Assembly: GCA_036504555.1 (NCBI GenBank) | Contig: DASXUZ010000080.1 | Coordinates: 4,003 to 68,002, forward strand | Reading direction: 5' to 3' | Length of the DNA stretch: 64,000 nucleotides | From: Prolixibacteraceae bacterium | GTDB lineage: Bacteria > Bacteroidota > Bacteroidia > Bacteroidales > Prolixibacteraceae | Shown here: in pieces, positions 617 to 56,119 of the stretch | Layout: each line of letters begins with the position of its first letter | How positions within the stretch are numbered: position 1 is the stretch's first letter | Made by a program: the position numbers and the translations under genes | The notes under the pieces: generated by a model | Told to the model about the DNA's origin: nothing | The model's database searches: none | What the model saw: the letters and a program-made list of their open reading frames with translations, nothing else

Positions 617-973
617 TTATTTTCCACTTCTAAGTTCCTCCAAGGCAACTTGCTTATTTGAATATTTTTCGATTTCCCGATCGGCTGTTTTTGCAGTATA
701 AGAATCGGCAGAATTGAAAAAGACCATTTCATTGGTTGTACCTCCTTCAAATTCACGCTTAAGTTCTATTTCTGACTCCAATGTTTCATTCTGTGACTGT
801 ATTGTTCTGTATATATCTTCAAACATTGCTGACTCACTTGCCACACTTTCCACTTTTCCTGAAACATCATTTGAAGTGACTTCTCTTTTGTTTACAGTGG
901 TTGCATTGATATTCGCAAGTCCAACTACTCCCAATGCCACCATTCCAATAAATGTTCTAATTTTCGTATTCAT
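617..973 (-). CDS. Small exported acidic hypothetical protein (118 aa)
   Basis: Signal-peptide-like N-terminus (MNTKIRTFIGMVALGVVGLANINA), E/S/T-rich mature part, and it fills the gap between a terminator and ispE. Confidence 0.7.
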   Translation of the reverse strand: MNTKIRTFIGMVALGVVGLANINATTVNKREVTSNDVSGKVESVASESAMFEDIYRTIQSQNETLESEIELKREFEGGTTNEMVFFNSADSYTAKTADREIEKYSNKQVALEELRSGK

Positions 974-1120
974 AATTCGTCTTTTAAATGTTTTTCCGGG
1001 TCCATCCCGGTACTTTCCTTTTTATTTTGTTTTCACTATTAAGACAGGTGAAAAGGCAAAAAGGTACAGGATAAACAGTTAAATAAAAGACAAACCTTTC
1101 TTAATTAAATATTAAAGGAT

Positions 1121-1933
1121 TTATAATTTTTGGCTGAATGTTAAGAATGATGAGGGAAACAGCTCCTTCCACCCCAATGGAAGTTCCTGAAAAAGTCCAA
1201 AGACACAGGAGCCGCTTCCCGACATGGAGGCATAAGCGGCACCCAAATCGTACAGGCGCTCCTTTAAGGCCCCGATCTCCGGATACTGCTGAAAGACAGA
1301 TGATTCAAATTGATTGATCACTTGATCCTTCCATTCCTGAACAGGAAGTTGGATCAAGGTTTTTAATGAGTTGGCTGGTTTGGCAGGAACCACCCATTGA
1401 AAGGCTTTGGCAGTAGAAACTTCAATTGGTGGCTTAACCAGCAATATGAACCAACCGTTAAGAACAAGTCGTACAGGCTCCATCATTTCGCCTCTCCCCG
1501 AGGCAAAAACAGGATAATTGCGAATAAAAAACGCACAATCGCTTCCCAGGATGGCCGCATATCGTTCCAATTGTTCGCCAGAAAGGGTCAATCCGAAGTG
1601 CTTATTCAACATCAAAAGCATAAAAGCACCGTCAGCGGATCCACCACCCAAACCAGCTCCAAAGGGTATTTGCTTGTGCAAATGAATTTTTAAGGGTGGC
1701 AAACTGAAGTCTTTCTGTAGCAAGCGGTAGGCTTTCATCACCAGATTCGACTCCGCCTCACCCGAAATCTGGATCCCACTGGATGAAAAATGAACTTCAT
1801 CTCCAACAACAAATTCAAGTGCATCGCACCAAGCCACGGGAAAGAAAATGGTTTCAAGATTATGAAATCCATCAGCTCGCTTTGACGTGATATTTAATCC
1901 AATATTTATTTTGGCATTGGGAAATACGATCAT
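1121..1933 (-). CDS. ispE: 4-diphosphocytidyl-2-C-methyl-D-erythritol kinase
   Basis: PNAKINIGL, GFHNLETIF, GHMP motif IPFGAGLGGGSAD, and MSGSGS. Start moved to MIVFPNAK (ATG at 1933). Confidence 0.97.
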   Translation of the reverse strand: MIVFPNAKINIGLNITSKRADGFHNLETIFFPVAWCDALEFVVGDEVHFSSSGIQISGEAESNLVMKAYRLLQKDFSLPPLKIHLHKQIPFGAGLGGGSADGAFMLLMLNKHFGLTLSGEQLERYAAILGSDCAFFIRNYPVFASGRGEMMEPVRLVLNGWFILLVKPPIEVSTAKAFQWVVPAKPANSLKTLIQLPVQEWKDQVINQFESSVFQQYPEIGALKERLYDLGAAYASMSGSGSCVFGLFQELPLGWKELFPSSFLTFSQKL

Positions 1934-2216
1934 AGAACAAAAGTAAAAAATTACAAGAATCTTCAGACTGTTTAACCTATAAACCATTCAATGTTATTTA
2001 TTTCTGACATTTTCATTCAATGATGTACAACAAGTTAGAATTCTGGATATTTTCGCTCAGTTTTTCCTTTTTTTGAGGAGATATGATGAAGAATCGAATC
2101 GCTTTTTTTACCAACAATGCATCAGAGGCCAAACCCAGGAGGCAAAAACCCAAATCGCATTGTGATTCAAACAAAGCGTTACAAACTAAATATTTAACCA
2201 ATATTATTAATTACGG

Positions 2217-4520
2217 ATGGAAAATTCAAAACGGAACGATGCATTACGAACCGATGCATTAAATTATCACAAGGAAGGCAGACCGGGCAAGATACAGGTG
2301 GTACCGACTAAACCTTACAGTACGCAACGCGATTTATCATTGGCTTATTCACCGGGCGTGGCCATCCCTTGCCTCGAAATAGAAAAAGATCAGCAACTTG
2401 CTTACGATTACACAGCCAAAGGAAACCTCGTGGCGGTCATTTCAAACGGCACGGCCGTGCTTGGATTAGGCGACATAGGAGCCCTGGCCGGAAAGCCAGT
2501 GATGGAGGGCAAAGGTTTGCTGTTCAAAATATTTGCCGACATCGATGTATTCGATATTGAAGTAGATGAGAAAGATCCTGCAAAGTTCATTGAAGTTGTA
2601 AAAGCCATTTCTTGCACTTTTGGAGGTATTAACCTTGAAGATATTAAAGCCCCTGAATGTTTTGAAATTGAAGAAAAACTCAAGGAAGCCCTGGACATTC
2701 CAATCATGCATGACGATCAGCATGGAACTGCCATCATTTCCGGGGCAGGATTGCTCAATGCCCTTGAAATTGTTGGAAAGAAAATCGAAGATGTCAGAAT
2801 TGTTGTCAATGGCGCAGGCGCTTCTGCATCTGCCTGTTCATTGTTATACATCCGTCTGGGAGCCGATCCTAAAAAGCTGGTCATGGTGGATAGTAAAGGT
2901 GTCATTTCTGTACGCCGTACCGATCTGAACAGCCGCAAGAAACCATTTGCTACCGAGCTTCCCTGCAATACGCTTGCCGAAGCAGTTGCAGGTGCTGATG
3001 TATTCCTGGGACTTTCAGTGGCTGATATTCTTACTCAAGATATGGTTCGCAGCATGGCAGAGAACCCCATTGTGTTTGCCCTGGCCAACCCAAATCCTGA
3101 AATTTCGTATACCCTTGCCATTGAATCACGTCCTGATTTGATTTTTGCCACTGGCCGAAGCGATCATCCCAACCAGGTAAACAATGTACTTGGATTTCCT
3201 TATATTTTCCGGGGCGCGCTCGATGTGCGGTCAACGGGTATTAACGAAGAGATGAAAGTGGCCGCGGTGCGTGCCATCGCTGAGCTGGCCAAGAAGCCTG
3301 TTCCCGAAGTGGTAACTGCAGCTTACAACACCACTCACCTCAGTTTCGGACGCCAATATATCATTCCAAAACCATTGGATCCCCGCTTACTCGTGACTGT
3401 TGCCCCTGCCGTTGCAAAGGCGGCCATGGAAAGCGGTATCGCCCGCAAACCAATCCTGGATTGGAATAAATATGCCGAAGAATTGCGCCAGCGAATGGGA
3501 CTTGACAACAAGCTAATCCGTGGACTGACTGAAAAAGCAAAAGAAAATCCAAAACGGGTGGTTTTTGCTGAAGCCAACCACATTAACATGCTGAAAGCCG
3601 CACAGGTCGCCCGTGCTGAAGGTATTTGCATCCCTATTCTTTTGGGAAATGAGGAAATTCTTGAGAAACGTTTCCGCAAGCATAGCATCGAACTTGATGG
3701 GGTTGAAATCGTTAATCTTCGCCACGATCGCGAAGAACCCAACCGCAAACGATATGCAAAGATGCTGACCGCCAAACGTCAACGCGAAGGCATGACCTAC
3801 AATGAGGCATACGAAAAGATGTTCGACCGCAACTATTTTGGAATGATGATGGTCGAAGCAGGCGATGCTGATGCCTTTATCACCGGCGTATATACCAAAT
3901 TTCAGGATGCCATTATCCCGGCCATCGAAATTGTTGGCATGCGCGATGGCTTGAGTCATATTGGAGGAATGAACATTGTTACCACCAAGCTCGGAACCTT
4001 CTTCTTTGCTGATACCATGGTTAACAACCACCCTTCGAAAGAAACCTTGATTGATATTGCCAAGCTGACCCATGACGCCGTCAAACTTTTCAATACAAAG
4101 CCAGTGATGGCCATGCTTTCTTATTCCAATTTTGGGGAACGAAATGTAGGTAGTCCAGCCATGGTTCATGATGCTGTTGATTATCTTCACAAGAACAATC
4201 CGGGAATGATGATTGATGGAGAAATGCAGATGAACTTTGCACTCGACCGTGAATTGCGTCACGAGAAATTCCCATTCTCCAAGATTGACGGAATGAATGT
4301 AAATACACTCATTTTCCCCAACCTAAGCTCATCGAGTATTGCCCATAAGCTGATGTTGGAAATGGGAATGTGTGAAACCATCGGACCAATCCAAATGGGC
4401 CTGACCAAACCAATCCATATCCTGAATGTGGAAAGTTCGGTTCGTGATATCTTGAATATGGTCACAATCGCTGTCATCGATGCCCAGGTAGAGGAACAGA
4501 AACTGAAAAACATTCAGTAA
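2217..4520 (+). CDS. maeB: NADP-dependent malic enzyme with C-terminal phosphotransacetylase-like domain
   Basis: LSLAYSPGVA, NGTAVLGLG, GKPVMEGK, INLEDI, HDDQHGTA, then a PTA-like domain (KRVVFAE...DGEMQ); 767 aa. Confidence 0.96.
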   Translation: MENSKRNDALRTDALNYHKEGRPGKIQVVPTKPYSTQRDLSLAYSPGVAIPCLEIEKDQQLAYDYTAKGNLVAVISNGTAVLGLGDIGALAGKPVMEGKGLLFKIFADIDVFDIEVDEKDPAKFIEVVKAISCTFGGINLEDIKAPECFEIEEKLKEALDIPIMHDDQHGTAIISGAGLLNALEIVGKKIEDVRIVVNGAGASASACSLLYIRLGADPKKLVMVDSKGVISVRRTDLNSRKKPFATELPCNTLAEAVAGADVFLGLSVADILTQDMVRSMAENPIVFALANPNPEISYTLAIESRPDLIFATGRSDHPNQVNNVLGFPYIFRGALDVRSTGINEEMKVAAVRAIAELAKKPVPEVVTAAYNTTHLSFGRQYIIPKPLDPRLLVTVAPAVAKAAMESGIARKPILDWNKYAEELRQRMGLDNKLIRGLTEKAKENPKRVVFAEANHINMLKAAQVARAEGICIPILLGNEEILEKRFRKHSIELDGVEIVNLRHDREEPNRKRYAKMLTAKRQREGMTYNEAYEKMFDRNYFGMMMVEAGDADAFITGVYTKFQDAIIPAIEIVGMRDGLSHIGGMNIVTTKLGTFFFADTMVNNHPSKETLIDIAKLTHDAVKLFNTKPVMAMLSYSNFGERNVGSPAMVHDAVDYLHKNNPGMMIDGEMQMNFALDRELRHEKFPFSKIDGMNVNTLIFPNLSSSSIAHKLMLEMGMCETIGPIQMGLTKPIHILNVESSVRDILNMVTIAVIDAQVEEQKLKNIQ

Positions 4521-11534: not shown

Positions 11535-13349
11535 ATGTTTCTTTCAAAGTTGCCATTCTTCAAGTTTAATTGGGAAAAAGATAATTTTAGTCTGAAAAGC
11601 ATCATCAACTGGATACTTTTCGTTTTTACGTTTTGCCTTTTTGTCATGGCATTACTCGAAATTGGTTTTCGTAAACCGGGCGATTATTACGGGGACCATA
11701 TTTATAACCTGTTTTTTCGGATTTCATATTCTGTTGTTGGAATTTTATACCTGGTTCGTTCTATTTTTTTCAAAGGCAATACCGCCAACCGAAAGGTATA
11801 CTTCACACAACTCCTGATCGGCATTTTCCTTGTCCTTTTCTTCATTCCCATTTTTGTGGTGAGCTATGGCGAGACTTTTGAATACTACATGTATCAAACT
11901 TCAGGCATCCAGATGCTCTCTTTCCTGTTGTTTTTTCTTGAATTGTCAAGGATGGAACTCAATGTGATGATCAAAGTGTTGAACCCTGCTCAATTGTTTA
12001 TGGTGAGCTTCGCTTTTTTCATTTTTGTGGGTGCCACCTTGTTAATGATGCCCATGTCGACTACATCGCCCATCAATTTTATTGATGCTCTTTTCACCTC
12101 TACCAGTGCGGTGTGTGTGACCGGATTAACAGTTGTTGATACCGCTACCAGGTACACATTTCTAGGGAAATTTATCATCCTGGGCTTGATTCAGGTCGGT
12201 GGAATCGGTGTGATGACCATCACCAGCTTTTTTGGTATCTTCTTCAAAGAAAAAGCGTCTTTTCGCGAACAGTCTATGTTGCGCGATTACCTGAGTGAAG
12301 ATAGCTTTGATGCCATTTTGAAGTCATTGATGAAAGTGGTGCTCATTACCTTATTGATCGAAGCAATCGGAGCTACATGTGTATACTGGTCCCTAGAAAA
12401 GAATGCTTTGGGATCGGTGAGTGACAACCTGAAATTTTCAATCTTTCATTCCATCTCTGCTTTTTGCAATGCCGGTTTTTCAACCTTGACCGATAATTTA
12501 TACGATGTACGTATCAGGACCAATTACAGCGTTCATGTTTGGTTGGCCAACCTCATTGTATTGGGAGGAATTGGATTCCCGGTGTTACTGAATTTATATC
12601 AATATTGTAAAAGCCAGGTCATTTGGGTGATCCAATACATCAAAACGCGTAAACCTTACCAGCACCGGGTAGGAATGATCACTTTAAACTCAAAAATAGT
12701 GATCTTTTCCACCTTTATCCTGTTGGTCTTTGGAACGCTGGCCTTTATGTACTTTGAAGCCCAACATACCCAATTGGGCATGGATACCAAAGCACGATTG
12801 GCGATGTCCTATTTCCAAAGTGTTACGCCCCGAACTGCGGGATTTAATAATTTCAGTATGTCAGCTCTGGCAATGCCCTCCATACTGATCATGACCTTTC
12901 TAATGTGGATCGGAGCTTCGCCCGTATCGACCGGGGGTGGTATCAAAACCAGTACATTTGCCCTGGCAATTCTGAACAGCTTCCGAATCATGAAAGGGAA
13001 AAATCACATTGAGGTGCACCGTTACGAAATTCACGAGTATTCGGTCAACAAAGCTTTTGCGATTATCACCCTCTCGATTTTCATTATCATTGTTGGTGCT
13101 TTTGGCATATATATTTTCGATGGACAAGCTGGCATGGTAAAAATCATCTTTGAATGTTTTTCGGCCTTTGGAACCGTAGGATTATCGTTGGAATTAACAC
13201 CCCATTTAACTGCTCAGTCAAAAACAATTCTAATTTTGCTCATGTATGTGGGGCGAATGGGAAGCATTACCCTGTTGCTCTCACTGGTAAAATCGTATGG
13301 TAATTCGTCTTTGTACCGTTACCCAAAAGAGAATGTAATAATAACTTAG
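11535..13349 (+). CDS. trkH: Trk/Ktr potassium uptake membrane subunit with N-terminal TM extension
   Basis: Filter motifs STSAVCVTGL, SAFCNAGF, TPRTAGFN, GGGIKTST and SAFGTVGLS. Confidence 0.93.
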   Translation: MFLSKLPFFKFNWEKDNFSLKSIINWILFVFTFCLFVMALLEIGFRKPGDYYGDHIYNLFFRISYSVVGILYLVRSIFFKGNTANRKVYFTQLLIGIFLVLFFIPIFVVSYGETFEYYMYQTSGIQMLSFLLFFLELSRMELNVMIKVLNPAQLFMVSFAFFIFVGATLLMMPMSTTSPINFIDALFTSTSAVCVTGLTVVDTATRYTFLGKFIILGLIQVGGIGVMTITSFFGIFFKEKASFREQSMLRDYLSEDSFDAILKSLMKVVLITLLIEAIGATCVYWSLEKNALGSVSDNLKFSIFHSISAFCNAGFSTLTDNLYDVRIRTNYSVHVWLANLIVLGGIGFPVLLNLYQYCKSQVIWVIQYIKTRKPYQHRVGMITLNSKIVIFSTFILLVFGTLAFMYFEAQHTQLGMDTKARLAMSYFQSVTPRTAGFNNFSMSALAMPSILIMTFLMWIGASPVSTGGGIKTSTFALAILNSFRIMKGKNHIEVHRYEIHEYSVNKAFAIITLSIFIIIVGAFGIYIFDGQAGMVKIIFECFSAFGTVGLSLELTPHLTAQSKTILILLMYVGRMGSITLLLSLVKSYGNSSLYRYPKENVIIT

Positions 13350-14602: not shown

Positions 14603-14636
14603 TAGACCTATTACTCGAGACACGACAATAGGTCTA
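14603..14636 (-). terminator. Hairpin overlapping the apbE stop codon
   Basis: 10-bp stem TAGACCTATT / AATAGGTCTA. Confidence 0.55.
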
Positions 14637-15641
14637 ATCCTCTTCCACAATCATTTTCTTCATTCCTTCCGAGAAGTAAACCTCATAGACGCCCTCGGGA
14701 TTGCTGTACACAAAATAAACTTCAATTCCCTTTAGTTTTGAAAGCAGTTCCTTGCTTTTGTCAATTCCCACGACCATAAAAGCAGTTGCCCAGGCATCAG
14801 CCGTGATGCAATCATCACATACGACCGTGGCACTCAACAAGGTATTGCGGGCTGGGAATCCTGTTTTAGGATCAATCGTATGGGCATATTTCACCCCATC
14901 CTCCACAAAAAACTTCCGATAGTTTCCAGAAGTGGCAAGGGCTTTGTTGTCAATTTCGATGATCGCCTCCAGGTCGTTACCAGGCATCATATTGCCCTCT
15001 GAAGGCCGATCGATGCCAATGTGCCACAATTTATCCTTGCCATTGGTCCCTTTTCCCCGAACTTCTCCCCCAATTTCAACGAGGTAATTTTTAATACCTT
15101 TCTCTTTAAAAAAATCACAGACAACATCTACCGAATAACCCTGGGCAATGGCATTCACATCGATTTTTACACCAGGATATTGCTTGATCACTTTATGGCC
15201 TTCAAGTTTTACCTTATCCATTCCAACATATTGCAGCAAGCTGTCGATGTATGCTGTATCGTGCTTGGCAACAGGGCCATTTCCAAACCCCCAGGCACTA
15301 ACAACAGGGCCAACGGTAATGTCGAAAGCTCCTCCTGAAACGATGTTCACCTCAGCCGATTTATTGAAAACTTCCACGAACCAGTTGTCAGCTTCAACGG
15401 TGGGATCATTGTTGTTAATCCTTGAAATAATAGAGGTTGAATCGTAAATGGAAAGTGACCGATCAAAAGCCTTCAGAATGGAGTCAATGTCAGTGCTGTA
15501 ATCCTTGTTGTTTGAATTCTCATAGGTAATGTGGTAGGTAGTGCCTTGTGCAAATCCTGAAATCTTCAGGTATTCACTTTTTTTATCCCGGCAGGAGGCC
15601 ATTAACAGAATGGATATCAATGCAAGAAAGGTAAATTTCAT
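14634..15641 (-). CDS. apbE: FAD:protein FMN transferase (lipoprotein)
   Basis: Lipobox LMASC, GFAQGTTYHI, IDVNAIAQGY, EIGGEV, ATSGNYR, HTIDPKTG and ADAWATA. Start placed at MKFTF. Confidence 0.95.
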   Translation of the reverse strand: MKFTFLALISILLMASCRDKKSEYLKISGFAQGTTYHITYENSNNKDYSTDIDSILKAFDRSLSIYDSTSIISRINNNDPTVEADNWFVEVFNKSAEVNIVSGGAFDITVGPVVSAWGFGNGPVAKHDTAYIDSLLQYVGMDKVKLEGHKVIKQYPGVKIDVNAIAQGYSVDVVCDFFKEKGIKNYLVEIGGEVRGKGTNGKDKLWHIGIDRPSEGNMMPGNDLEAIIEIDNKALATSGNYRKFFVEDGVKYAHTIDPKTGFPARNTLLSATVVCDDCITADAWATAFMVVGIDKSKELLSKLKGIEVYFVYSNPEGVYEVYFSEGMKKMIVEED

Positions 15642-15819
15642 GGCTATTGTGTTTGCTGATTGGTAAATTTTCATGACAAATGTAGAATATATAAGCTAGG
15701 CCAACAAATGATCAGCTTAGAGGTTGAAAGTTTCTTTTCCCATATTGAAACCTACTTTTCATTTTAATCATTAATTTGGTGCCCGATAAAATTAACACAA
15801 GAATTCAAATATAGAACCC

Positions 15820-45932: not shown

Positions 45933-47573
45933 ATGAAAAATATTTACACCTGTTGTGCCATATTGCTATTTGCAGTCCTTTGCACCATGGCCCAGGGCCA
46001 GGATAAGCCGACCTATGACAGAGCCAATTGGTTGATCAAAGCCGAGAATTTCAAGCCAAAACTCACTGAAACCATCGTACACCCCACAAGCATTGTGAAA
46101 TTGGTGGAGGACAAAGCCTCATTCCAGGGATGGAAAACAGAGCCAGTGTCAAAAGCGGATGAAATTTACAAGACTTCGTTTAAGAATATCAAAAGTGTGG
46201 TGGTCGATTTTGGCAATCACTATACCGGTTACTTCACCTTTAAGCTGGGGGTTTTGAGAGGCACTGCCGATGGTCCTGTTCGCTTTAAATTGACCTTTGG
46301 GGAAGTTCCCTCTGAATTGGCCGTTCCGTTTGACCCCTATCCCGGCGCACTGAGCAGGGCCTGGTTGCAGGATGAAGTGGTGACGGTCATGGATATTCCA
46401 GCCAGCGTGACCCTGGAGCGCAGGTTTGCCTTCAGGTACGTAAAAATCGAACTGCTGGCCAGTTCAACATACTACGATTTTAACATTTCTGAGATGCAGT
46501 TAAAAGCCGTCAGTTCGGTCAGCAAAATGCCCGACCCATTGGCCAGTTCAACCGAACCGATTGTAAGCGACATCGATCAGGTGGGATTGAATACCCTCAG
46601 GGAATGTATGCAAACGGTGTATGAAGACGGCCCAAAAAGAGACCGTAGGTTATGGATCGGTGATTTATACCTTGAATCGCTGGCCAACAGTTATTCCTTT
46701 AAAAACTATGATCTGACTAAACGCTGCCTCTATTTACTGGCAGGCCTGAGTGGAGAAGAAGGATACCTGGTTGGGACCGTTTTCGAAACGCCCCGGCCAC
46801 ATGCACAGACTGGCCAGTATTTATTTGATTATGCCCTGCTCTACAATGTTGCCTTAAAAGAATATGCGGCAGCGACCAATGACCTTGAAACGGCCAATGA
46901 TCTTTGGCCATTGGCCAAAAGACAGCTGGATATCATTTACAAATATGTGCAGCCCAACGGACTACTCGATTACGAGAAGGCGAATAAGGAATGGTGGCTG
47001 TTTTTTGATTGGAAAGATGGATTGAACAAGGAGGCAGCTTTGAATGGCTTATCCATTTATGCACTGAAACAGACCTATGAGTTGGCAAAAATCCTTCACA
47101 AGGAGGCGGAATTAAAAGAGGTGCCAAAACTTATTCAGAAAATGACCGAAGCTTCGCGCAAGCAACTGTTCAACAAGACAAGCAGCTTGTTTGAATCGGG
47201 CAAGGACCACCAAATCTCGTATGCCTCGCAGATTTGGATGATACTGGGGGGAGTTCTTTCAAAGGAAGAAAGTCAGAAAACATTGAAGGCATTGGTAAAT
47301 ACTGAAAGCGCGTTAACTCCTGGGGGTCCCTATTTATACCATTATTTTATCCAGTCATTGATTAATTCAGGAATGAACAAGGAGGCAAAAAGTTATCTGA
47401 TCAGTTACTGGGGTGGAATGGTTAAAAAAGGAGCAGATACCTTCTGGGAGGTCTATGATCCCAAAAATGAATTGCTTTCACCCTATGGATTTTATCCCGT
47501 CAATAGCTATTGCCACGCCTGGAGTTGTACGCCTGTTTACTTTATCAGAAAATATCCTGAAATATTTCAATAG
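45933..47573 (+). CDS. Secreted alpha-L-rhamnosidase-like glycoside hydrolase (GH78-type (alpha/alpha)6 barrel)
   Basis: Signal peptide, VVDFG..TGY, EDGPKRDRRLWIGD, GADTFWE and SYCHAWS. Confidence 0.85.
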   Translation: MKNIYTCCAILLFAVLCTMAQGQDKPTYDRANWLIKAENFKPKLTETIVHPTSIVKLVEDKASFQGWKTEPVSKADEIYKTSFKNIKSVVVDFGNHYTGYFTFKLGVLRGTADGPVRFKLTFGEVPSELAVPFDPYPGALSRAWLQDEVVTVMDIPASVTLERRFAFRYVKIELLASSTYYDFNISEMQLKAVSSVSKMPDPLASSTEPIVSDIDQVGLNTLRECMQTVYEDGPKRDRRLWIGDLYLESLANSYSFKNYDLTKRCLYLLAGLSGEEGYLVGTVFETPRPHAQTGQYLFDYALLYNVALKEYAAATNDLETANDLWPLAKRQLDIIYKYVQPNGLLDYEKANKEWWLFFDWKDGLNKEAALNGLSIYALKQTYELAKILHKEAELKEVPKLIQKMTEASRKQLFNKTSSLFESGKDHQISYASQIWMILGGVLSKEESQKTLKALVNTESALTPGGPYLYHYFIQSLINSGMNKEAKSYLISYWGGMVKKGADTFWEVYDPKNELLSPYGFYPVNSYCHAWSCTPVYFIRKYPEIFQ

Positions 47574-47693
47574 GTTTCAGGCCAGGCACTGAGGATACTT
47601 GAATAAATCAACAATCACTTTCATTTACCCTTCAATGTTTGTTTATTTGTAGGAATCAATGTCGGGGTTACAATTTAAAATAGATAGAAACAG

Positions 47694-48413
47694 ATGAAGA
47701 TTTTTATAGCAATATTGTTGATTTGCACCACAGTAAGCGTATTTGCCAAGAAAAAAGAGAAGAATACCCTGTCGAAAGATGAAATAAAATCAGGCTGGGA
47801 ATTGATTTTTGATGGAACAACGACCAAGGGCTGGAGAGGCTATGGCCAAAAAACGATGCCCGAGAAAGGATGGGATGTGGTTGACGGCAAGCTTCATTGC
47901 ATGGCCAATGGCGGTGGGGGTGATATTATTTTCAACAAGAAACTTACCAACTTCAAATTGGAGCTCAGCTGGAAGATCAGTGAAGGCGGCAACAGCGGCA
48001 TATTCATTTACGGCAAGGAGGTGGCAGGAACCCCTATTTACCATTCGGCTCCTGAATACCAGTTACTGGACGATCAAAACCATGCCGATGCCAAGGACGG
48101 GAAGGACGGGAACCACAAATCAGGCTCACTCTATGACATTCTGCCGGCTGTTCCTCAAAATGCGAATCCAGCCCTCAAATGGAATCAAGCCAAGATCGTT
48201 TCAAAGGACGGCAAGGTTGAATTTTGGCAGAACGACGTCAAAGTGCTTGAGTTTCAAATAGGCAATGCAAATTGGAAAAAACTTTGTGCCGGGAGTAAAT
48301 TCAAAGACTGGCCTGATTTTGTAAACAATCCTGCAAAAGACGGATACATTGGTCTTCAGGACCATGGCAATGAAATTTGGTTTAAAAATATCAAGTTGAA
48401 AGTCTTGAAATAG
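47694..48413 (+). CDS. DUF1080 (3-keto-disaccharide hydrolase-like) secreted protein
   Basis: GWELIFDG, W.V.DG, GNSGIF, EYQLLD, WN..KI and GYIGLQDHG..IWFKNIK. Confidence 0.92.
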   Translation: MKIFIAILLICTTVSVFAKKKEKNTLSKDEIKSGWELIFDGTTTKGWRGYGQKTMPEKGWDVVDGKLHCMANGGGGDIIFNKKLTNFKLELSWKISEGGNSGIFIYGKEVAGTPIYHSAPEYQLLDDQNHADAKDGKDGNHKSGSLYDILPAVPQNANPALKWNQAKIVSKDGKVEFWQNDVKVLEFQIGNANWKKLCAGSKFKDWPDFVNNPAKDGYIGLQDHGNEIWFKNIKLKVLK

Positions 48414-48446
48414 AAATAAAACAAAAGATAAATGCCCCTGACATGG

Positions 48447-48476
48447 AAAGCCGTTTCTTTAAGTAGAATCGGCTTT
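48447..48476 (+). terminator. Intrinsic terminator
   Basis: AAAGCCGTTTCT / AGAATCGGCTTT stem followed by a T run. Confidence 0.7.
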
Positions 48477-48597
48477 TTACTTTCAAATGATAGGCCTGAA
48501 GGGTATTTTGATTTCGAATATAATTTTTACTCCAATGCAGTTAGCAAATTTGAATATTTATACATTATTTTAAGAACCCAAAAATCTCTTAACTAAA

Positions 48598-49842
48598 ATG
48601 AACAAATCGACTAACAAACAAGGTTGGACCATCACCTTTGCCGCATTGGGCATCAACCTGGTCATGGGCGTTCTCTATTCGTGGGGCGTCATCAAAAAAG
48701 CACTGGTAAGCGACTGGGGCTGGACCAACACAGAAGCGGCCTTGCCCTTTACCGTTTCAGCAGCCTTCTTTGCCCTTACCATGATTTTTGCAGGACGCGC
48801 ACAGGATAAATTCGGGCCCCGAATGGTCACCATCTTCGGGGGCATCATGCTCGGTGCCGGCTTAATTGCTTCGGGTTTTGTGACCAGCCAAATGATGATG
48901 GTACTTACCTTCGGGGTCATTGGCTCCATCGGGATCGGGCTAGGTTATTCGGCCGCCACACCCTGCGCCATGAAATGGTTCGATTCCTCAAAAAAAGGAA
49001 TGATCGCCGGCATTGTGGTTGCAGGAGTTGGCCTGTCGCCTGTATACATCACCCCGATTACGGCCAGCCTCTTGAAAAGTTATGGAATCAGCAACACGTT
49101 TATCATTTTAGGCATTTTTGCCATTGCAGTGGTAATCCTGTTGTCATTTTTCTTAAAAAACCCACTGCAAGCAGAGGTTCCAAAAACAGCAGGCCAACAA
49201 GCTGCCCCTGCATCCAATGCAAACGATTTAACCTGGAGCCAGGTTACCCGGACACCCCAGTTTTATCTCTTGTGGGTCATGTACCTATTGGCTGCAACGG
49301 CAGGCTTGATGCTGATCGCCCATCTTCCAAGCATTGCTGTTGCCCAGGCTGACTGGAAGACTGCGGGATTTATGTTGGTTGTCATCCTTTCAATTTTCAA
49401 TGCCATTGGCCGCCTCGGGGCAGGTGTATTGTCGGATAAAGTGGGCAGAACAAGGGCCATGATGATCGTATTCATGCTTCAGGCAGTCAACATGTTCCTT
49501 TTCATGTTTTATACCTCCATCCCATTGCTCGTCATGGGCTCTGCAATTGCAGGTCTGGCCTACGGAGCCGTATTTTCACTTTTCCCTACCACCACTGCCG
49601 AATTCTTCGGGATGAAAAACCTGGGCGTCAACTACGGCCTGATCTTTACAGGCTGGGGAGTGGCCGGTGTCATTGGCCCCATGCTGGGTGGGCTGGTGGC
49701 CGATAAAACCGGCGCCTACAGCAACGGATACATTGTGGCGGGGGTATTTCTTTTAATTGCTACCCTGCTGGTCAGCATCCTAAAATCCCCAAAAGTAAAG
49801 CCCGTAGATGTCAAAGAACCACAGCTTTCGTCCATCAGTTAA
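48598..49842 (+). CDS. MFS transporter, oxalate/formate antiporter (OFA) family
   Basis: 12 TMs; AGRAQDKFGPR, GIGLGY...KWF..KKG and GRLGAG.LSDKVGR, LGVNYG. Confidence 0.9.
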   Translation: MNKSTNKQGWTITFAALGINLVMGVLYSWGVIKKALVSDWGWTNTEAALPFTVSAAFFALTMIFAGRAQDKFGPRMVTIFGGIMLGAGLIASGFVTSQMMMVLTFGVIGSIGIGLGYSAATPCAMKWFDSSKKGMIAGIVVAGVGLSPVYITPITASLLKSYGISNTFIILGIFAIAVVILLSFFLKNPLQAEVPKTAGQQAAPASNANDLTWSQVTRTPQFYLLWVMYLLAATAGLMLIAHLPSIAVAQADWKTAGFMLVVILSIFNAIGRLGAGVLSDKVGRTRAMMIVFMLQAVNMFLFMFYTSIPLLVMGSAIAGLAYGAVFSLFPTTTAEFFGMKNLGVNYGLIFTGWGVAGVIGPMLGGLVADKTGAYSNGYIVAGVFLLIATLLVSILKSPKVKPVDVKEPQLSSIS

Positions 49843-50037: not shown

Positions 50038-50280
50038 ATGAGCGTATTAGAATTCAAATCAAAAATAGGAAAACAATCGATTGATATTCCCAAAATAATT
50101 CCAACAGTATTAATTACTGCCGATGGAATAATTGCATCAGGGGATTATAAATCAATAGATTCAAATATTTATGATGCAACTTATTTACTGGAATCAATTA
50201 ACAGGGAGCTAAAGGATTTTGAGCAGGGAAGAACCCATTCACATGAAACTGTACGAAAGTTATATGAGAAATATCTTTGA
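50038..50280 (+). CDS. Small hypothetical protein with an antitoxin-like C-terminus
   Basis: Own -7 box TATCTTTG (50013-50020). The C-terminus LESINRELKDFEQGRTHSHETVRKLYEKYL resembles RelE/ParE-associated antitoxin tails. Confidence 0.6.
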   Translation: MSVLEFKSKIGKQSIDIPKIIPTVLITADGIIASGDYKSIDSNIYDATYLLESINRELKDFEQGRTHSHETVRKLYEKYL

Positions 50281-50342
50281 TCATTCAGCTGATGTCAGAA
50301 AAACAAAAATATATAAAATCTACCTCAATAATCCAATCAAGA

Positions 50343-52817
50343 ATGGAACTTCAGACCAACCCGCAATTAGAGCTTGCCTTTGATTTTCTACAATATACCA
50401 ACCAGAATATTTTCTTAACTGGAAAGGCGGGAACGGGTAAAACCACTTTTCTGCGCAACCTGAAAAAGCTATCACCCAAACGAATGGTGGTCGTTGCCCC
50501 AACGGGTGTGGCTGCCATCAATGCGGGAGGTGTAACCATTCACTCATTTTTCCAGATGTCATTTGGGCCGCAGGTTCCGCAGAATCCCGAACAGATCAGA
50601 CCTGTCACGGTACCTGTCAATGGAAATGACGCCGCCAGGATCAATCGTTTCAGCAAACAGAAAATCAACATCATCAGAAGCCTTGATTTATTGGTCATCG
50701 ATGAAATCAGCATGGTGCGCGCTGACGTGCTGGATGGAATTGATGAGGTATTGCGCCGCTATAAAAACCGGTACAAACCTTTTGGCGGGGTGCAATTGCT
50801 CATGATCGGCGACTTGCAACAGTTGGCCCCCGTTCTGAAAGACGATGACTGGAACATTCTGAAACCCTATTATGAAACCTGCTTTTTCTTCAGCAGCCAT
50901 GCCCTGAAACGATCTAAATTCACTGGCATCGAGCTGAAACATATATTCAGGCAAAGTGATCCGCGGTTTATTGCCCTATTGAACAAAGTGCGTGAAAACC
51001 AGATGGATGATGCCACCCTTTTGGAATTAAACCAACGATACATTCCTGGGTTTAATCCTGAAGAGAAAGAAGGCTACATCACCCTTACCACGCACAATTT
51101 CCAGTCGCAGCAAATCAACAGTGAAAAATTAAGTATGCTGAAGTCCAAATCCATCCGCTACAAGGCAGAAGTGACAGGCGACTTTCCAGAGTACTCCTAC
51201 CCGACTGATCCCGAGCTGGAATTAAAAGTGGGATCTCAGGTCATGTTTGTCAAAAACGACCTCTCCCCTGAAAAACGCTTCTACAACGGTAAGATTGGAA
51301 AAATCATCAATATCACCAAAACTGAAATAGAAGTTCAGTGCCCTGATGACAACGAGTCGATTGATGTGGAGACCGTGAAATGGGTAAATACCAAATACAC
51401 GCTCAACGATACCACCCAGGAAATCACCGAGGAAGAAATCGGTACCTTCACCCAATTCCCGCTCAAACTGGCCTGGGCCATTACCATTCATAAAAGCCAG
51501 GGGCTCACCTTCGAAAGAGCCATCATCGATGCGCGTGCGTCGTTCGCCCATGGACAAGTGTATGTTGCCTTGAGCCGATGCAAAACACTCGAAGGATTGG
51601 TATTGAGTTCAACGATCTCTCCCACCAGTGTCAAAAACGATACCACGGTCATCCAATTCACTGATGAGGTGGAACGCAAACAACCTGGAGCCGCTGAACT
51701 GGCTCAATCGCGCAAGGAATACGTTCAGCAATTGCTCACTGAATTGTTTGATTTCAAACCCATCCTTTTGCAAATCCAGTATATACTCAAGCTTTGGGAA
51801 GAAAATTCGTCTCATTTACTGGGCACCCTCAAAATACAACTGCAAGGAATGATTTTACCCCTTCAAACGGAATTGATCGAGGTAGGAACCAAATTCGACA
51901 CGCAACTTCGCAACCTGATTTGGGCAGGCGCCCATGCCGAAAATGACCCGGCCCTCCAGGAACGGATCAGAAAAGCGGCTGCTTATTTCTCCGCAAAGCT
52001 GGAAGTATTAATCGCCCAGCCTTTATCGGTAGCCACTTTCGATACCGACAACAAGACCATCCGCAAAAACTTCAACGACACGGTCGATAAACTGAGCAAG
52101 GAAATTTACACCAAGAAAGTCTGTTTCGATGAATGCAGCAATGGTTTCACCATCAAGAGCTACCTGGAAACAAAAGCAAAAGCTGCGATCGAAATTCCTG
52201 AAACTGGCCCAAAGGGACAGCCATCGGCCAGTGCACCGACCTTCACCCGGTATCCTGATTTTTATAGCAAGCTCAAGAAATGGAGGGAAGAAAAATCTAT
52301 TTTGCTGAATGAAGAAATTGCCCGTATCATTCCTCAAAAAACCCTGCTTGAAATTGCACAAACCTTGCCTGTATCAAGGGCAGAACTGAAGGCAGTCAAA
52401 GGAATGGGGGGAACCCGGCTTCAACAGTTTGGCCGCGATATCCTTGAAATGGTCATCGCTTTCCGCCGGCTGAAAGGATTGGATTTACCCATGCACCCCG
52501 AGAAAGAAGCCGAAAAGGCCGGGATGGATACCAAACAAATCAGCTATGAACTGTTCAAAAGCGGGCAGTCAATTACACAGATTGCCACTGAACGAAATTT
52601 CGCTCCTACAACCATTGAAGCGCATCTGGCTCACTATGTGGGTCTCGGCCAATTGGAAATCAACCGTTTTGTTGAATCCGCCAAAGTTAAAACCATTGAG
52701 GCATACATTCTGAAAAACAAAACAAACCAAATCACTGATATTCGTGCAGCCATTGGTGATAGCTACACTTATTCCGAAATCAGGTTTGTGATCAAATATT
52801 TAGAGGCAAGGCACTAA
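50343..52817 (+). CDS. PIF1/RecD-like SF1B helicase with C-terminal HRDC and HTH domains
   Basis: TGKAGTGKTT, APTGVAA, IDEISMV, GDLQQL, FRQ, LAWAITIHKSQG, YVALSR; HRDC (LKKWR...KGMG..RLQQFG) and a terminal HTH. Start placed at MELQTN. Confidence 0.92.
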   Translation: MELQTNPQLELAFDFLQYTNQNIFLTGKAGTGKTTFLRNLKKLSPKRMVVVAPTGVAAINAGGVTIHSFFQMSFGPQVPQNPEQIRPVTVPVNGNDAARINRFSKQKINIIRSLDLLVIDEISMVRADVLDGIDEVLRRYKNRYKPFGGVQLLMIGDLQQLAPVLKDDDWNILKPYYETCFFFSSHALKRSKFTGIELKHIFRQSDPRFIALLNKVRENQMDDATLLELNQRYIPGFNPEEKEGYITLTTHNFQSQQINSEKLSMLKSKSIRYKAEVTGDFPEYSYPTDPELELKVGSQVMFVKNDLSPEKRFYNGKIGKIINITKTEIEVQCPDDNESIDVETVKWVNTKYTLNDTTQEITEEEIGTFTQFPLKLAWAITIHKSQGLTFERAIIDARASFAHGQVYVALSRCKTLEGLVLSSTISPTSVKNDTTVIQFTDEVERKQPGAAELAQSRKEYVQQLLTELFDFKPILLQIQYILKLWEENSSHLLGTLKIQLQGMILPLQTELIEVGTKFDTQLRNLIWAGAHAENDPALQERIRKAAAYFSAKLEVLIAQPLSVATFDTDNKTIRKNFNDTVDKLSKEIYTKKVCFDECSNGFTIKSYLETKAKAAIEIPETGPKGQPSASAPTFTRYPDFYSKLKKWREEKSILLNEEIARIIPQKTLLEIAQTLPVSRAELKAVKGMGGTRLQQFGRDILEMVIAFRRLKGLDLPMHPEKEAEKAGMDTKQISYELFKSGQSITQIATERNFAPTTIEAHLAHYVGLGQLEINRFVESAKVKTIEAYILKNKTNQITDIRAAIGDSYTYSEIRFVIKYLEARH

Positions 52818-53061: not shown

Positions 53062-54630
53062 ATGAAAGCTGACAGCCCAAAGTTTTATCATTCGCTGTTT
53101 ATTACCATCCTTCGGGTATCCATTGGCTGGCATTTCCTCTTTGAAGGAATCTCCAAAATTGTACAGGGAAACTGGACCGCTTCCACCTATTTACTCAATA
53201 CCACGGGCTTTCTTTCGGGATTCTACCACTGGATTGCAGGCTCTCCGGGGCTTTTGATGGTGACTGATATCCTGAACATGTACGGGCTGCTGCTCATTGG
53301 ACTTGCCCTCTTTATTGGCTTATTCAGCCGCTATGCTGCACTGGCAGGGGCTTTGCTGCTTACCCTCTATTATTTTGCCTATCCACCTTTCGGCAACCCG
53401 ATGATGAACACTTCAGACGGTCATTTATTCATGGTCGATAAACTGTTTATTGAAGCTGCCGCCCTCTTGTTTCTCTTCTTTTACCGTGAACAAGGATATT
53501 GCATTGATAACCTACTTGACGCATACCGCAGTCGCAAGAAATCACCAGTTGCCGCTACTGCATCCACCACTGAAGAAGTGAACTCACGCCGGGAAGCGCT
53601 GAAGAACCTGGCTACCATACCCGTATTGGGAGCAATGGGCTGGGGAGCGGTGAACAACTTCAACACCTATGGCGTCGATGTCATGTCGGGAGCAACCATC
53701 CAGGTCAAGCAGACCGCCTTAAGCGAACTGAAAGGCGCATTGCCCAAAGGCAAGATCGGGAAGCATGAAATCAGCCGACTCATTGCCGGGGGAAACCTGA
53801 TTGGCGGATGGGCCCACTCGCGCGATTTGATCTATGTGTCTACCCTATTCAAAGCATACAATACCGAGAAGAAAGTTTATGAAACATTGATGCTGGCCGA
53901 ACAAGCGGGCATCAACACCATCAATATCGGTTTCCCTTCCAATCCATTGCTGGCCAAATACAAGAAGATGACCGGCAGCAATATCAAGATCATCTCCCAG
54001 ATTGCACCCAAACTGGACAACAGTAAGCTTTCGGAGGTTGGACCTCATACTGACAAGAAGCTCTATTTTGAATTCATTGACCAGGCCATCGATGCCGGGG
54101 TGGATATTCTCCAGGTGCAGGGAAACTGGTGTGACTGGCTGGTACGAGACAACAAGATTGAAGTGATCGATGAGATGATCGCCTACATCCGCAAACAGGG
54201 TTACACCGCCGGACTGGCAGCCCATTCGGTTGAATCACTCATTGCATGCGCCGATCAGGGCATCATTCCTGATTATTACATGAAAACCATGCACCACGAT
54301 CAATACTGGTCGGCCCACCCACGCGAATTCCGCTTCCCTTTTGAAGTGGACGGAAAGGAATACCTCGACCACAACCGTTTTCACAACAACATGTTTTGTC
54401 TCTTCCCTGAACGTACCGTAGAATTTGTGGCCAAGGCAACAGTGCCGGTAATGGGTTTCAAGGTACTGGCCGCCGGCTCCATCGAACCACAGGATGGCTT
54501 TAAATGGGCCTACGACAACGGGGCAGACTTTATTTGCGTCGGGATGTTTGACTTCCAAGTTGTCAACAATGTGAATATTGCCATAGACTGCCTGAATAAA
54601 ACCAACCGTACGAGACCCTGGCACGGATAA
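53062..54630 (+). CDS. DoxX/DoxD membrane domain fused to an internal Tat-like segment, a DxxSGAT motif and an aldo/keto-reductase-like barrel
   Basis: LRVSIGWHFLFEGISKI and 4 TMs; SRREALK (aa 175-181); DVMSGAT (aa 206-212); LPKGKIG...ISRLIAGGN; MGFKVLAAG...ICVGMFD. Confidence 0.8.
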   Translation: MKADSPKFYHSLFITILRVSIGWHFLFEGISKIVQGNWTASTYLLNTTGFLSGFYHWIAGSPGLLMVTDILNMYGLLLIGLALFIGLFSRYAALAGALLLTLYYFAYPPFGNPMMNTSDGHLFMVDKLFIEAAALLFLFFYREQGYCIDNLLDAYRSRKKSPVAATASTTEEVNSRREALKNLATIPVLGAMGWGAVNNFNTYGVDVMSGATIQVKQTALSELKGALPKGKIGKHEISRLIAGGNLIGGWAHSRDLIYVSTLFKAYNTEKKVYETLMLAEQAGINTINIGFPSNPLLAKYKKMTGSNIKIISQIAPKLDNSKLSEVGPHTDKKLYFEFIDQAIDAGVDILQVQGNWCDWLVRDNKIEVIDEMIAYIRKQGYTAGLAAHSVESLIACADQGIIPDYYMKTMHHDQYWSAHPREFRFPFEVDGKEYLDHNRFHNNMFCLFPERTVEFVAKATVPVMGFKVLAAGSIEPQDGFKWAYDNGADFICVGMFDFQVVNNVNIAIDCLNKTNRTRPWHG

Positions 54631-54645
54631 ATAAACGATGGTGCA

Positions 54646-55200
54646 ATGAATCAGGAAGCTGAAATTCCGATACCTATCCGGTTTAATTCCTTTAAACATC
54701 ATCGGGATTATATCCTGGAGGTTCTGAAAACGGCCTCTCCTGAATTGATTGCAAGCCTGTTGGACCCCTTGTGCAACAATTATATCGACATTTATTCCGG
54801 GACCCTCACACCGGAGGCTATTTTTCATCAGGTGATTGACATCCTTCAATCCAACCAGGTATTTCAGCCAGATGACTTTACCTCCTGGGTCGATACCATC
54901 AACGGTTACCGGCAAATCACTCTGGTAGACCAATCGGAATGGGTGCTCAGAAAAAGCAATGAAGAGGAACGTTACATTCACCTGCATCCGGCACGCACAG
55001 GACCTTTCTCCATGCGTTTTAAGGGTTCTACCTTAAAAACAGTCTGGATGCTGAAAACCAATTCCCCAAGCCCTCAGCACTCCCCCTCACTGGAAAAAGT
55101 GAACCAGTTAAGAATACAGATTGGCCTTTCACCCGTCAAAAAGCTAGACCGAAGCAAGGGTATTTTAAACTGCTATGAAAAATTCTTTTTGCAGGACTGA
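54646..55200 (+). CDS. Hypothetical cytoplasmic protein (184 aa)
   Basis: Clean ORF 15 bp after the DoxX fusion; candidate motifs FNSFKHH and YIHLHPAR. Confidence 0.75.
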   Translation: MNQEAEIPIPIRFNSFKHHRDYILEVLKTASPELIASLLDPLCNNYIDIYSGTLTPEAIFHQVIDILQSNQVFQPDDFTSWVDTINGYRQITLVDQSEWVLRKSNEEERYIHLHPARTGPFSMRFKGSTLKTVWMLKTNSPSPQHSPSLEKVNQLRIQIGLSPVKKLDRSKGILNCYEKFFLQD

Positions 55201-55357: not shown

Positions 55358-56119
55358 ATGATCCAGGCTTGTTTTCGCTTTTATGAAGAGTTGAATGATT
55401 ACCTGCCTGAAGAAATGCGCCAGGAGTGGATTGAAAGTCAGATTGAAATTGTAGCATCAGTGGGAGAAATTATTCAATCATTGGGAATTCCATTGGAGGA
55501 GGTGGATTTAATCCTTGTAAATGAGCAATCCAGAGGGTTTGATTACCAACTCCATGATGGTGACCGGGTATCGGTATACCCGGTATTTGAATCGTTCGAT
55601 GTGTCAGAACTGAATCAGTTAAGGGAAAAGCCACTTCGCAATCCAAGGTTTATCTGCGATGTTCATTTGGGCCGATTGTGCAGATACCTGCGTATGTTGG
55701 GATGGGATACCCTTTATTCCAATCATTATGACCCGAAAGAAATGATTGAACTATCCCTCCAGGAAAAACGCATTCTCCTTTCACGAAGTATTCAAATCAT
55801 TCGCCACAAGGAATTGACCCATGCCTGGTGGGTCCGCTCTGCCAACCCTTTGGAACAGCTGAAAGACCTGGTGAATAAACTGGATTTATCAAAACTCATC
55901 AATCCATTGACCCGTTGCCTCAATTGCAATTATGAGCTGGCAGCCGTAGACAAAAGTGAAATACTTCAAGACCTGGAGCAAAGGACATCAACTTATTACA
56001 CTGAATTTTTCAAATGTCCCAACTGCCACCATATATACTGGAAAGGATCACACTATGAAAATATGCTCAAATTCATAGACCATCATTTGTTAAACAAAGA
56101 ATTCATTTCATGGCAATGA
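55358..56119 (+). CDS. Mut7-C protein: ubiquitin-like domain + PIN-type RNase + Zn ribbon
   Basis: FRFYEELNDYLP...EVDLILVN...GDRVSVYP; RFICDVHLGRL.RYLRMLG.DT; CLNC...CPNCHHIYWKGSH. Confidence 0.93.
   Translation: MIQACFRFYEELNDYLPEEMRQEWIESQIEIVASVGEIIQSLGIPLEEVDLILVNEQSRGFDYQLHDGDRVSVYPVFESFDVSELNQLREKPLRNPRFICDVHLGRLCRYLRMLGWDTLYSNHYDPKEMIELSLQEKRILLSRSIQIIRHKELTHAWWVRSANPLEQLKDLVNKLDLSKLINPLTRCLNCNYELAAVDKSEILQDLEQRTSTYYTEFFKCPNCHHIYWKGSHYENMLKFIDHHLLNKEFISWQ

Follow-up and report, generated by a model that had tools for sequence, protein, structure and literature searches.

The subject of this analysis is a 64,000-nt stretch of DNA from a Prolixibacteraceae bacterium (GCA_036504555.1, contig DASXUZ010000080.1, positions 4,003-68,002, forward strand; hereafter the window) and, within it, a gene whose 522-residue product joins four elements: a DoxX membrane domain, an internal twin-arginine translocation (Tat) motif, a motif of the kind modified by the flavin transferase ApbE, and a β/α barrel resembling aldo-keto reductases (AKRs) in fold. 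An initial annotation had proposed that this DoxX-barrel protein is an extracytosolic flavin/quinone oxidoreductase, with the barrel exported by Tat, covalent flavin mononucleotide (FMN) on Thr212, and electrons passing to the quinone pool through DoxX. Within the reach of sequence comparison the evidence supports this interpretation, and the architecture belongs to a widespread, undescribed family of membrane proteins. We infer that the gene encodes a self-contained, membrane-bound periplasmic oxidoreductase.

The sequence features on which the proposal was built all lie where it had placed them. The stretch LRVSIGWHFLFEGISKI occupies residues 17-33, NLATIPVLGAMGWGA directly follows SRREALK, and translation puts the two arginine codons at 53587-53592 and DVMSGAT at D206-T212. 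Among the profile searches that had been recommended, the one for DoxX was positive, while DoxD, Aldo_ket_red and FMN_bind found nothing in Pfam. The DoxX profile (PF07681) matches residues 14-102 with 25.8 bits against a cut-off of 23.6, which places the protein in the DoxX family, and it is the sole Pfam domain recognised in the 522 residues. Structure prediction agrees with the proposed layout. In an AlphaFold model built from 55 homologues (mean predicted local distance difference test score, pLDDT, 87.9), helices at residues 8-35, 52-85, 89-106 and 127-140 form a four-helix membrane domain of the DoxX type; they are followed by a fifth helix (185-201), a low-confidence, disordered linker that holds the motif (202-228), and the β/α barrel (229-512).

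The assignment of the barrel to the AKRs stood at the level of fold and failed at the level of sequence. Modelled separately (residues 215-522, 40-sequence alignment), the barrel reaches a pLDDT of 92.1 and a predicted template modelling score of 0.92. Its top 32 fold matches in the PDB, as ranked by Foldseek, are all AKRs (best E-value 1.4e-10, template modelling scores 0.62-0.75, identity 11-18%). The nearest structures are PA4992 (4exa/4exb), plant and bacterial L-galactose dehydrogenases and AKR14A1/YghZ, after which generic barrels follow, and the whole-protein model returns the same ranking. Residues 220-522 have no significant sequence match in Pfam, NCBIfam or the PDB, whether searched as a single sequence or as a 55-sequence profile. 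Conserved positions in the barrel include R239, H252, R254, D255, Y258, E280, H388, D404, K408, Y415, K467, D489, D497 and Q499; in DoxX, W23, H24, E28, K32 and H56 are conserved on the presumed periplasmic side.

Twin-arginine signal and membrane topology

Export of the barrel by Tat is very probable, judging by the protein and its relatives. R176 and R177 are among only seven invariant columns in an alignment of 55 fused and standalone homologues that extends down to ~31% identity, and neither KR nor RK replaces the pair in any of them. The initial annotation had named loss of this pair in homologues as grounds for refutation, and the pair survives in every one. Across 33 diverse fused members, conservation is 0.71 in SRREALK versus 0.29 in the linker preceding it. 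The motif leads into NLATIPVLGAMGWGAV, so that a twin-arginine consensus is joined to an uncharged, moderately hydrophobic stretch.

The standalone barrel homologues, which are ~330-360 residues long, align to the query from the twin arginine onward. Their N-termini are textbook Tat signals of the NRRSFLKKS type, e.g., MKPTLNRRSFLKKS and MEKSISRRQFLKKS, and two of three that were scanned, P0155 and P0162, pass the NCBIfam model TIGR01409 (18.9 and 18.5 bits, cut-off 16.7). The same model gives no match to the 522-residue protein, in which the motif is internal, at residue 175, rather than N-terminal. TatC is encoded in the genome (214 bits). Comparison of the two forms indicates that the motif is a genuine Tat signal turned internal.

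We note separately that many standalone barrels (P0162, P0163, P0170, P0172, P0183, P0186, P0213 and P0214) share a conserved SLEEKxLLA stretch after the hydrophobic region of the signal, at residues ~25-40, and that this stretch is absent from the DoxX-fused forms.

The distribution of charge and the low hydrophobicity of the fifth transmembrane helix (TM5) fit an N-in, C-out topology with joint insertion by Sec and Tat. The presumed periplasmic loops (residues 36-51 and 107-126) contain no lysine or arginine, and the stretch 141-182 contains eight. On the Hessa scale, which was applied without regard to position and is thus rough, TM5 is the least hydrophobic of the five transmembrane helices (7.5 vs -1.3 to 5.1), as it is across the family (median 8.25 vs 2.2-5.7). 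The protein therefore has the pattern of dual Sec/Tat substrates, i.e., an even number (four) of Sec-type helices, then the twin arginine, then a last helix of low hydrophobicity. Experiments on polytopic proteins have traced the transfer from Sec to Tat to low hydrophobicity of the last helix, after a twin arginine (Tooke et al. 2017, PMC5449189; Keller et al. 2012, PMC3471235).

The flavinylation motif and its association with DoxX

Seven residues, D-x-x-[S/T]-G-A-[S/T], make up the minimal ApbE motif, which is reported to be flavinylated even when it serves as a tag, whether terminal or within a loop (PMC12052999). DVMSGAT is an exact match. Conservation of this motif was the other point on which the initial annotation had staked its proposal, and all 71 full-length orthologues keep a strict match, mostly DVMSGAT or DTLSGAT, at a median of 30 residues after the twin arginine. 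(These orthologues come from 80 related loci found with a query alignment of 14 sequences; the 848 neighbouring open reading frames were clustered.) Three paralogues in the genome, 43-46% identical to the protein, all retain D, S, A and T at the same columns, and among the 33 fused members the motif scores 0.67 versus 0.29 and 0.33 in the surrounding linker segments.

The strict motif has only nine matches in the 3,914 open reading frames (1.48 million residues) of the genome, yet it stands in the same place in the three paralogues and the 71 orthologues, and its occurrence is therefore far beyond chance. The nine matches comprise the protein itself and a paralogue, an NqrB/RnfD-like protein (DGFSGAT), two secreted proteins of ~250 residues, a small secreted protein and three that are chance-like. 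Six of the nine are thus in likely ApbE clients or in the DoxX-barrel family. The secreted proteins, which are encoded outside the window, carry DAVTGAT and DATTGAT in the two larger ones and DGVSGAS in the small one (C1:35373-36170(-), C86:28245-28991(-) and C268:2143-2676(+)); they are probably further clients of ApbE, and possibly DUF2271-like.

A single copy of apbE is present in the genome. It lies in the window and is not adjacent to the DoxX-barrel gene, as the initial annotation had said; the start given there, 15641, is Met12 of a longer open reading frame. Read from Met12, the product has a lipoprotein signal (…LLMASC), and ApbE should therefore act in the periplasm. The motif is likewise predicted to be extracytosolic, given its position after the Tat-anchor helix and the N-in/C-out distribution of charge. 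Taken with its conservation, this makes flavinylation of Thr212 likely. Among the 80 loci, that of Candidatus Symbiothrix dinenymphae, a termite-gut protist symbiont, is the only one in which apbE stands directly beside the DoxX-barrel gene, in convergent orientation (L091:9527-10582(-)).

The motif is associated with DoxX and not with the barrel. It is strict in 13 of 24 full-length DoxX-fused representatives, and most of the others have near variants at the same place (HAITGAT, QAITGAT, EAVTSAT, DAFSGST, DAVTAAS), whereas it is absent from all 37 standalone proteins whose Tat signal is N-terminal (Fisher 4e-7, for related sequences that are not independent). Such a pattern would be expected if electrons were relayed between DoxX and the exported enzyme.

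The same association is seen with other partner domains. In P0246 the DoxX subtype, the anchor helix and the motif are joined to a DUF362 domain. In another Bacteroidota family (L006), a 161-residue DoxX gene is followed immediately by a gene for a Gfo/Idh/MocA protein that starts TRREILKGIAGVPVVGAIWWAG and contains DGISSAT. In the window's own genus (L115, genome G215), a DoxX gene (3615-4217(-)) is followed 4 nt later by a Gfo/Idh/MocA gene (2019-3611(-)) whose product starts KRRTLLKALAGVPVLGAF and contains DAVSSAT; its best NCBIfam match, below cut-off, is glycoside 3-dehydrogenase. A second Gfo/Idh/MocA gene at that locus (948-1988(-)) encodes an ordinary Tat signal and no motif. The TM5 pattern LKxLAxxPxxGA also heads the DoxX-partnered Gfo/Idh/MocA proteins. 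As judged from these arrangements, DoxX, the Tat-anchor helix and the ApbE motif constitute a portable module for unrelated periplasmic redox-type domains.

A broader generalization, which we put forward tentatively, is that this DoxX subtype serves as a general quinone-coupling module. Its Tat-inserted anchor helix and ApbE-tethered FMN would link the respiratory chain to periplasmic dehydrogenases that have at least three folds unrelated to one another (AKR-like barrel, Gfo/Idh/MocA and DUF362). The part of the flavin would be to re-oxidise a nicotinamide cofactor exported by Tat together with the enzyme.

Table 1. Positions in the window of the DoxX-barrel gene, its parts, and apbE
Feature	Position	Strand	Basis
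Whole gene, 522 residues: DoxX, Tat signal-anchor, ApbE motif, AKR-like barrel	53062..54630	+	Open reading frame, translation without stops
DoxX membrane domain, TM1-TM4, residues 8-140; proposed quinone-interacting module	53083..53481	+	PF07681, model helices
Cytoplasmic linker, residues 141-174; variable, rich in positive charge	53482..53583	+	Mean conservation 0.29
Internal twin-arginine motif S-R-R-E-A-L-K, residues 175-181	53584..53604	+	Twin arginine invariant in 55 homologues
TM5, residues 182-201; weakly hydrophobic, predicted Tat signal-anchor; conserved Pro187 and Gly190	53605..53664	+	Hydrophobicity
ApbE-type flavinylation motif D-V-M-S-G-A-T, D206-T212	53677..53697	+	Fits minimal motif
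Thr212, predicted FMN attachment site	53695-53697	+	Last residue of ApbE-type motif
Predicted periplasmic β/α barrel, residues 229-522; AKR-like fold, no Pfam family	53746..54627	+	Model, Foldseek
apbE, the genome's sole FMN transferase gene	14634..15674	-	PF02424 at 280 bits

Distribution and genomic surroundings

More than 7,800 homologues are found in a 90%-clustered collection, and their sources name them only "DoxX family protein" or "hypothetical." Among 50%-identity representatives, an exhaustive search finds 2,100 matches, many of them to the barrel alone. The full-length form is present in 20 of 24 genomes of the window's genus, and a sample of 200 Bacteroidota genomes contains no full-length member outside that genus. 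Named hosts are mostly Prolixibacteraceae (Draconibacterium, Mariniphaga and Maribellus), with some Tannerellaceae and Parabacteroides.

The Prolixibacteraceae protein also has orthologues, 60-65% identical to it, at six loci (L051, L063, L077, L090, L107 and L109) in metagenome-assembled genomes labelled as Acidobacteriota, Planctomycetota, Lentisphaerae, Victivallales and Nitrospirales; these reflect either lateral transfer or binning errors. For one differently labelled assembly, a 200-genome sample of its phylum holds one other full-length fused member besides the assembly's own, and a few standalone forms. An 8-Mb genome of another phylum contains two tandem standalone barrel genes (L142/L144; G407:C27:10768-11589 and 11849-12655) and a third copy elsewhere.

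The neighbouring genes are mostly carbohydrate-active, and for this reason a carbohydrate is the likeliest kind of substrate that we can name. Orthologues are found beside genes for Gfo/Idh/MocA proteins, glycoside hydrolases (GHs) of families GH88, GH16 and GH3, YdjC, DUF2961, a sulfatase and a GDSL esterase, and the paralogue on contig C148 lies amid GH31, GH92, GH5, GH3, GH43 and GH92 genes. In the window, a cluster 3 kb upstream (45933-49842) encodes a GH78 alpha-rhamnosidase, a 3-keto-disaccharide hydrolase (DUF1080) and a transporter of the major facilitator superfamily, and hints at a 3-keto-sugar pathway nearby; a PIF1/HRDC helicase gene (50277-52817) is situated between this cluster and the DoxX-barrel gene. 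Our preference for a carbohydrate-derived substrate is nonetheless a tentative one.

The open reading frame that begins 16 nt after the gene (54646-55200(+), 184 residues) was considered as a further part of the system and rejected: it has no Pfam match and is kept at that place in only the three closest loci. Beyond it, 55358-56119(+) encodes a Mut7-C RNase domain fused to a ubiquitin-like Ub-Mut7C domain.

Proposed function and relation to known systems

The features described above can be assembled into a single scheme, whose steps are drawn from sequence features and homology. The four DoxX helices would be inserted by Sec/YidC and the weakly hydrophobic fifth helix would not. The barrel would fold in the cytoplasm, possibly around a tightly bound cofactor, and TatABC would recognise SRREALK and move the folded barrel across the membrane, with TM5 remaining as an uncleaved signal-anchor packed against DoxX. 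In the periplasm, lipoprotein ApbE would transfer FMN from flavin adenine dinucleotide to Thr212, whose place would be in a flexible linker, only a few residues beyond the membrane. The AKR-like barrel would then oxidise a periplasmic substrate, most likely carbohydrate-derived, and the electrons would go to the tethered FMN, perhaps by way of a bound nicotinamide cofactor, and on to menaquinone at a site in the periplasmic half of DoxX. The AKR and Gfo/Idh/MocA folds are both nicotinamide-dependent, which suggests that the enzymes carry bound NAD(P) (nicotinamide adenine dinucleotide or its phosphate) through Tat and that the tethered FMN may re-oxidise it. For the entire chain, from joint Sec/Tat insertion and flavinylation of Thr212 to electron flow linking barrel and menaquinone at DoxX, the likeliest course being from a substrate of carbohydrate origin to the quinone, we estimate a probability of roughly 0.6. 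Of its parts, electron transfer to or from the quinone through DoxX is the one for which we consider the chances even.

Several observations weigh against this scheme. To our knowledge, no structure shows quinone binding by a DoxX protein, and such binding is a long-held assumption. The barrel lacks the sequence credentials of an AKR: a search of the whole genome with PF00248 finds eight AKRs and none of the three paralogues, the protein itself has no Aldo_ket_red match at E-values up to 1, and family membership was rejected when hhalign gave a probability of 9.9% over 95 columns in comparison with five AKRs that the genome also encodes. In the partial register given by hhalign, the strand-4 histidine of the AKR catalytic tetrad Asp-Tyr-Lys-His faces a position that is not histidine, and the DTAxxY part is replaced. 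The first positive charge after TM5 is K216, ~15 residues on, and the feature that helps such a helix to avoid Sec is accordingly weak (the family has a median of two lysines or arginines, range 0-4, within the first 20 residues after TM5). With regard to flavinylation, apbE is 38 kb from the DoxX-barrel gene amid housekeeping genes, and the two genes are neighbours at only one of the 80 orthologous loci and at none of another 14. Because apbE is almost never adjacent, the guilt-by-association evidence used for known ApbE substrates is missing in this clade. Classical clients in the genome, i.e., one FMN_bind gene and the NqrB/RnfD-like protein, already account for apbE, and the motif lies in a disordered linker of a protein with no Pfam match to FMN_bind, DUF2271, DUF3570 or NqrB/RnfD. 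Finally, the 80 loci reveal no conserved operon partner (the best cluster, Gfo/Idh/MocA, appears in 13 of 77), so that the gene appears to work alone and no partner points to the substrate.

These observations leave room for other explanations. The same assembly might run in reverse, with menaquinol reducing the flavin and the barrel reducing a periplasmic carbonyl, quinone or other oxidant, as a quinol-dependent periplasmic reductase for detoxification or respiration. The AKRs, as the nearest fold, act mostly as carbonyl reductases, and a link with quinone or catechol stress exists for several genes of the DoxX family. Flavinylated extracytosolic reductases that are fed from the membrane are also known, such as fumarate and urocanate reductases (PMC8238504). 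Set against these points, the split systems pair this type of DoxX with Gfo/Idh/MocA proteins, for which the best match is an oxidising enzyme, glycoside 3-dehydrogenase, and the glycoside hydrolase neighbourhoods suggest sugars as electron donors. The potential of menaquinol, about -75 mV, would moreover suit it badly to the reduction of carbonyls or of a typical FMN couple, and we regard reverse flow as unlikely. A different possibility is that the FMN on Thr212 is the covalently fixed catalytic cofactor of the barrel itself, with DoxX a mere anchor or scaffold and the electrons taken up by oxygen, by a soluble partner or by some other membrane partner. That DoxX binds quinone is an assumption, and the strand 7-strand 8 region of the barrel (KVLAAGxI…GADFxxVG) resembles IMP dehydrogenase barrels over 27 residues, a weak similarity (E 0.017) on which we have not built. 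There is precedent in non-covalent flavin sites that gain an ApbE motif on a flexible extension (PMC11334425), termed "flavin-fixing" (PMC12052999). The motif, however, tracks DoxX: the standalone barrels lack it, and it turns up where this type of DoxX has a Gfo/Idh/MocA or DUF362 protein, neither related to the barrel, as its partner. A relay to DoxX accounts for this better than a cofactor specific to the barrel would. The nearest folds are, in addition, NAD(P) enzymes rather than flavin barrels, all of which renders this idea improbable.

Two further alternatives dispense with the flavin or with export. If the D..SGAT sequence were an unmodified structural or ligand-binding turn, then the protein could be a tethered, Tat-exported carbohydrate-modifying enzyme without redox activity, such as an isomerase, lyase or hydrolase. 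The lack of an FMN_bind fold and the near absence of apbE adjacency would be understandable in that case, the lower-ranked fold matches do include sugar epimerases and a 3-keto-glucoside lyase, and the conserved histidine, aspartate and lysine residues could bind a metal. We give this a slim chance, given that the sequence is an exact minimal ApbE motif which is very rare in the genome and otherwise found mainly in likely ApbE clients, that a structural role is unlikely in a disordered and otherwise variable linker, and that, among unrelated domains, the motif reappears only on those with a DoxX partner. It is still harder to believe that the twin arginine is an evolutionary relic, in which case TM5 would either be no transmembrane helix at all or enter the membrane through Sec, and the barrel would remain cytoplasmic or cross unfolded. 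The internal position of the pair, the distant first positive charge and the moderate model confidence for TM5 would be in keeping with a relic, but invariance of the pair over such diverged sequences would not, nor would periplasmic loops free of charge together with a pre-TM5 linker that has eight lysines or arginines. An ApbE motif would also make no sense in the cytoplasm when ApbE carries a lipoprotein export signal. The scheme in which a Tat-exported barrel delivers electrons through a tethered FMN to menaquinone at DoxX is therefore the one that we prefer.

If that scheme is true, there are a number of implications. DoxX is, as far as we know, among the commonest bacterial membrane domains without a demonstrated mechanism, and with the DoxX-barrel family its interaction with quinones could be put to the test in a system of one gene. 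The family would represent a new class of ApbE substrate, invisible to screens of apbE neighbourhoods, and a new family inserted jointly by Sec and Tat. In Bacteroidota that degrade polysaccharides, it could also channel electrons from sugars oxidised in the periplasm directly into respiration. Should the module be as general as we tentatively propose, it would amount to a sixth class of flavinylation-based extracytosolic electron transfer and the first concrete mechanism for the DoxX family. Members are present in cultivable genera (Draconibacterium and Maribellus), which makes the family experimentally accessible.

Among known systems, relatives in the DoxX family include the DoxD/DoxA thiosulfate:quinone oxidoreductase of Acidianus and the DoxX-SseA-SodA complex of M. 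tuberculosis. Shared with these are a four-helix domain of the DoxX type and the idea of a redox partner linked to quinones. The differences are that neither the sequence nor the neighbourhood has a link to sulfur chemistry, and that the partner here is fused, predicted to be exported by Tat, and probably flavinylated. A connection to thiosulfate oxidation was considered and rejected: the protein has no match to PF04173 (DoxD) at E-values up to 1, and the window contains no DoxA-like neighbour and no sulfur genes near the gene.

The AKR superfamily provides the nearest known fold, and a "GINT" sequence after helix 1 recalls the AKR "GINxxDTA"; AKRs are, however, cytosolic NAD(P)H enzymes, whereas this barrel is without a PF00248 match, shares low identity with them and is predicted to be exported. 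A functional parallel may be closer in Tat-exported Gfo/Idh/MocA sugar dehydrogenases with tightly bound NAD(P), which include the glucose-fructose oxidoreductase of Zymomonas and the BT2158-type glycoside 3-dehydrogenases (NCBIfam NF058561). These too are periplasmic enzymes of a nicotinamide-type fold exported by Tat, and in related genomes the module of DoxX, anchor and motif is paired with such enzymes. They differ in catalytic fold, and NAD(P) in the DoxX-barrel protein is putative only.

The initial annotation knew of no characterised protein with this architecture. The literature that we searched contains no paper combining DoxX with ApbE, and those joining DoxX with flavinylation or with twin-arginine terms are unrelated to the architecture. 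The closest mechanistic comparison is with the ApbE-flavinylated systems (the FMN_bind proteins NqrC/RnfG, NosR, PplA, DUF2271 and DUF3570), with which the DoxX-barrel protein has in common an exact motif predicted to be extracytosolic, a genome-encoded ApbE with an export signal, and a membrane module with a presumed link to quinones. Motifs on flexible extensions also have precedent among these systems. Their membrane modules are NapH-like, MsrQ-like, PepSY-like, DsbD and NQR/RNF-like (Meheust et al. 2021, PMC8238504; Huang et al. 2024, PMC11334425). In the protein described here, by contrast, the module is DoxX, the motif resides in a bare linker rather than in an FMN_bind, DUF2271 or DUF3570 domain, and everything is on one polypeptide. 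Both surveys of ApbE substrates found their candidates through apbE neighbourhoods and do not mention DoxX (PMC8238504, PMC11334425); screens of this kind would miss the DoxX-barrel family because apbE is not adjacent.

With regard to biogenesis, the comparison is with the dual Sec/Tat proteins, which likewise have an even number of Sec-type helices, a twin-arginine motif, a last helix of low hydrophobicity and a globular extracytoplasmic domain; Sco3746 and the polyferredoxins also have five transmembrane helices, as does the DoxX-barrel protein. The families listed in the published work are Rieske, Sco3746, polyferredoxin and YkuE, with no mention of DoxX (Tooke et al. 2017, PMC5449189; Keller et al. 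2012, PMC3471235). The present family is absent from that list and differs in having DoxX as its membrane part and an AKR-like barrel as its exported domain, in being found mainly in Bacteroidota, and in that its Tat dependence is a prediction. We suggest that the DoxX-barrel protein most likely belongs with the extracytosolic electron-transfer systems based on flavinylation, to which it would add both a new membrane module and a new type of ApbE substrate, and that it represents at the same time a new dual Sec/Tat family.

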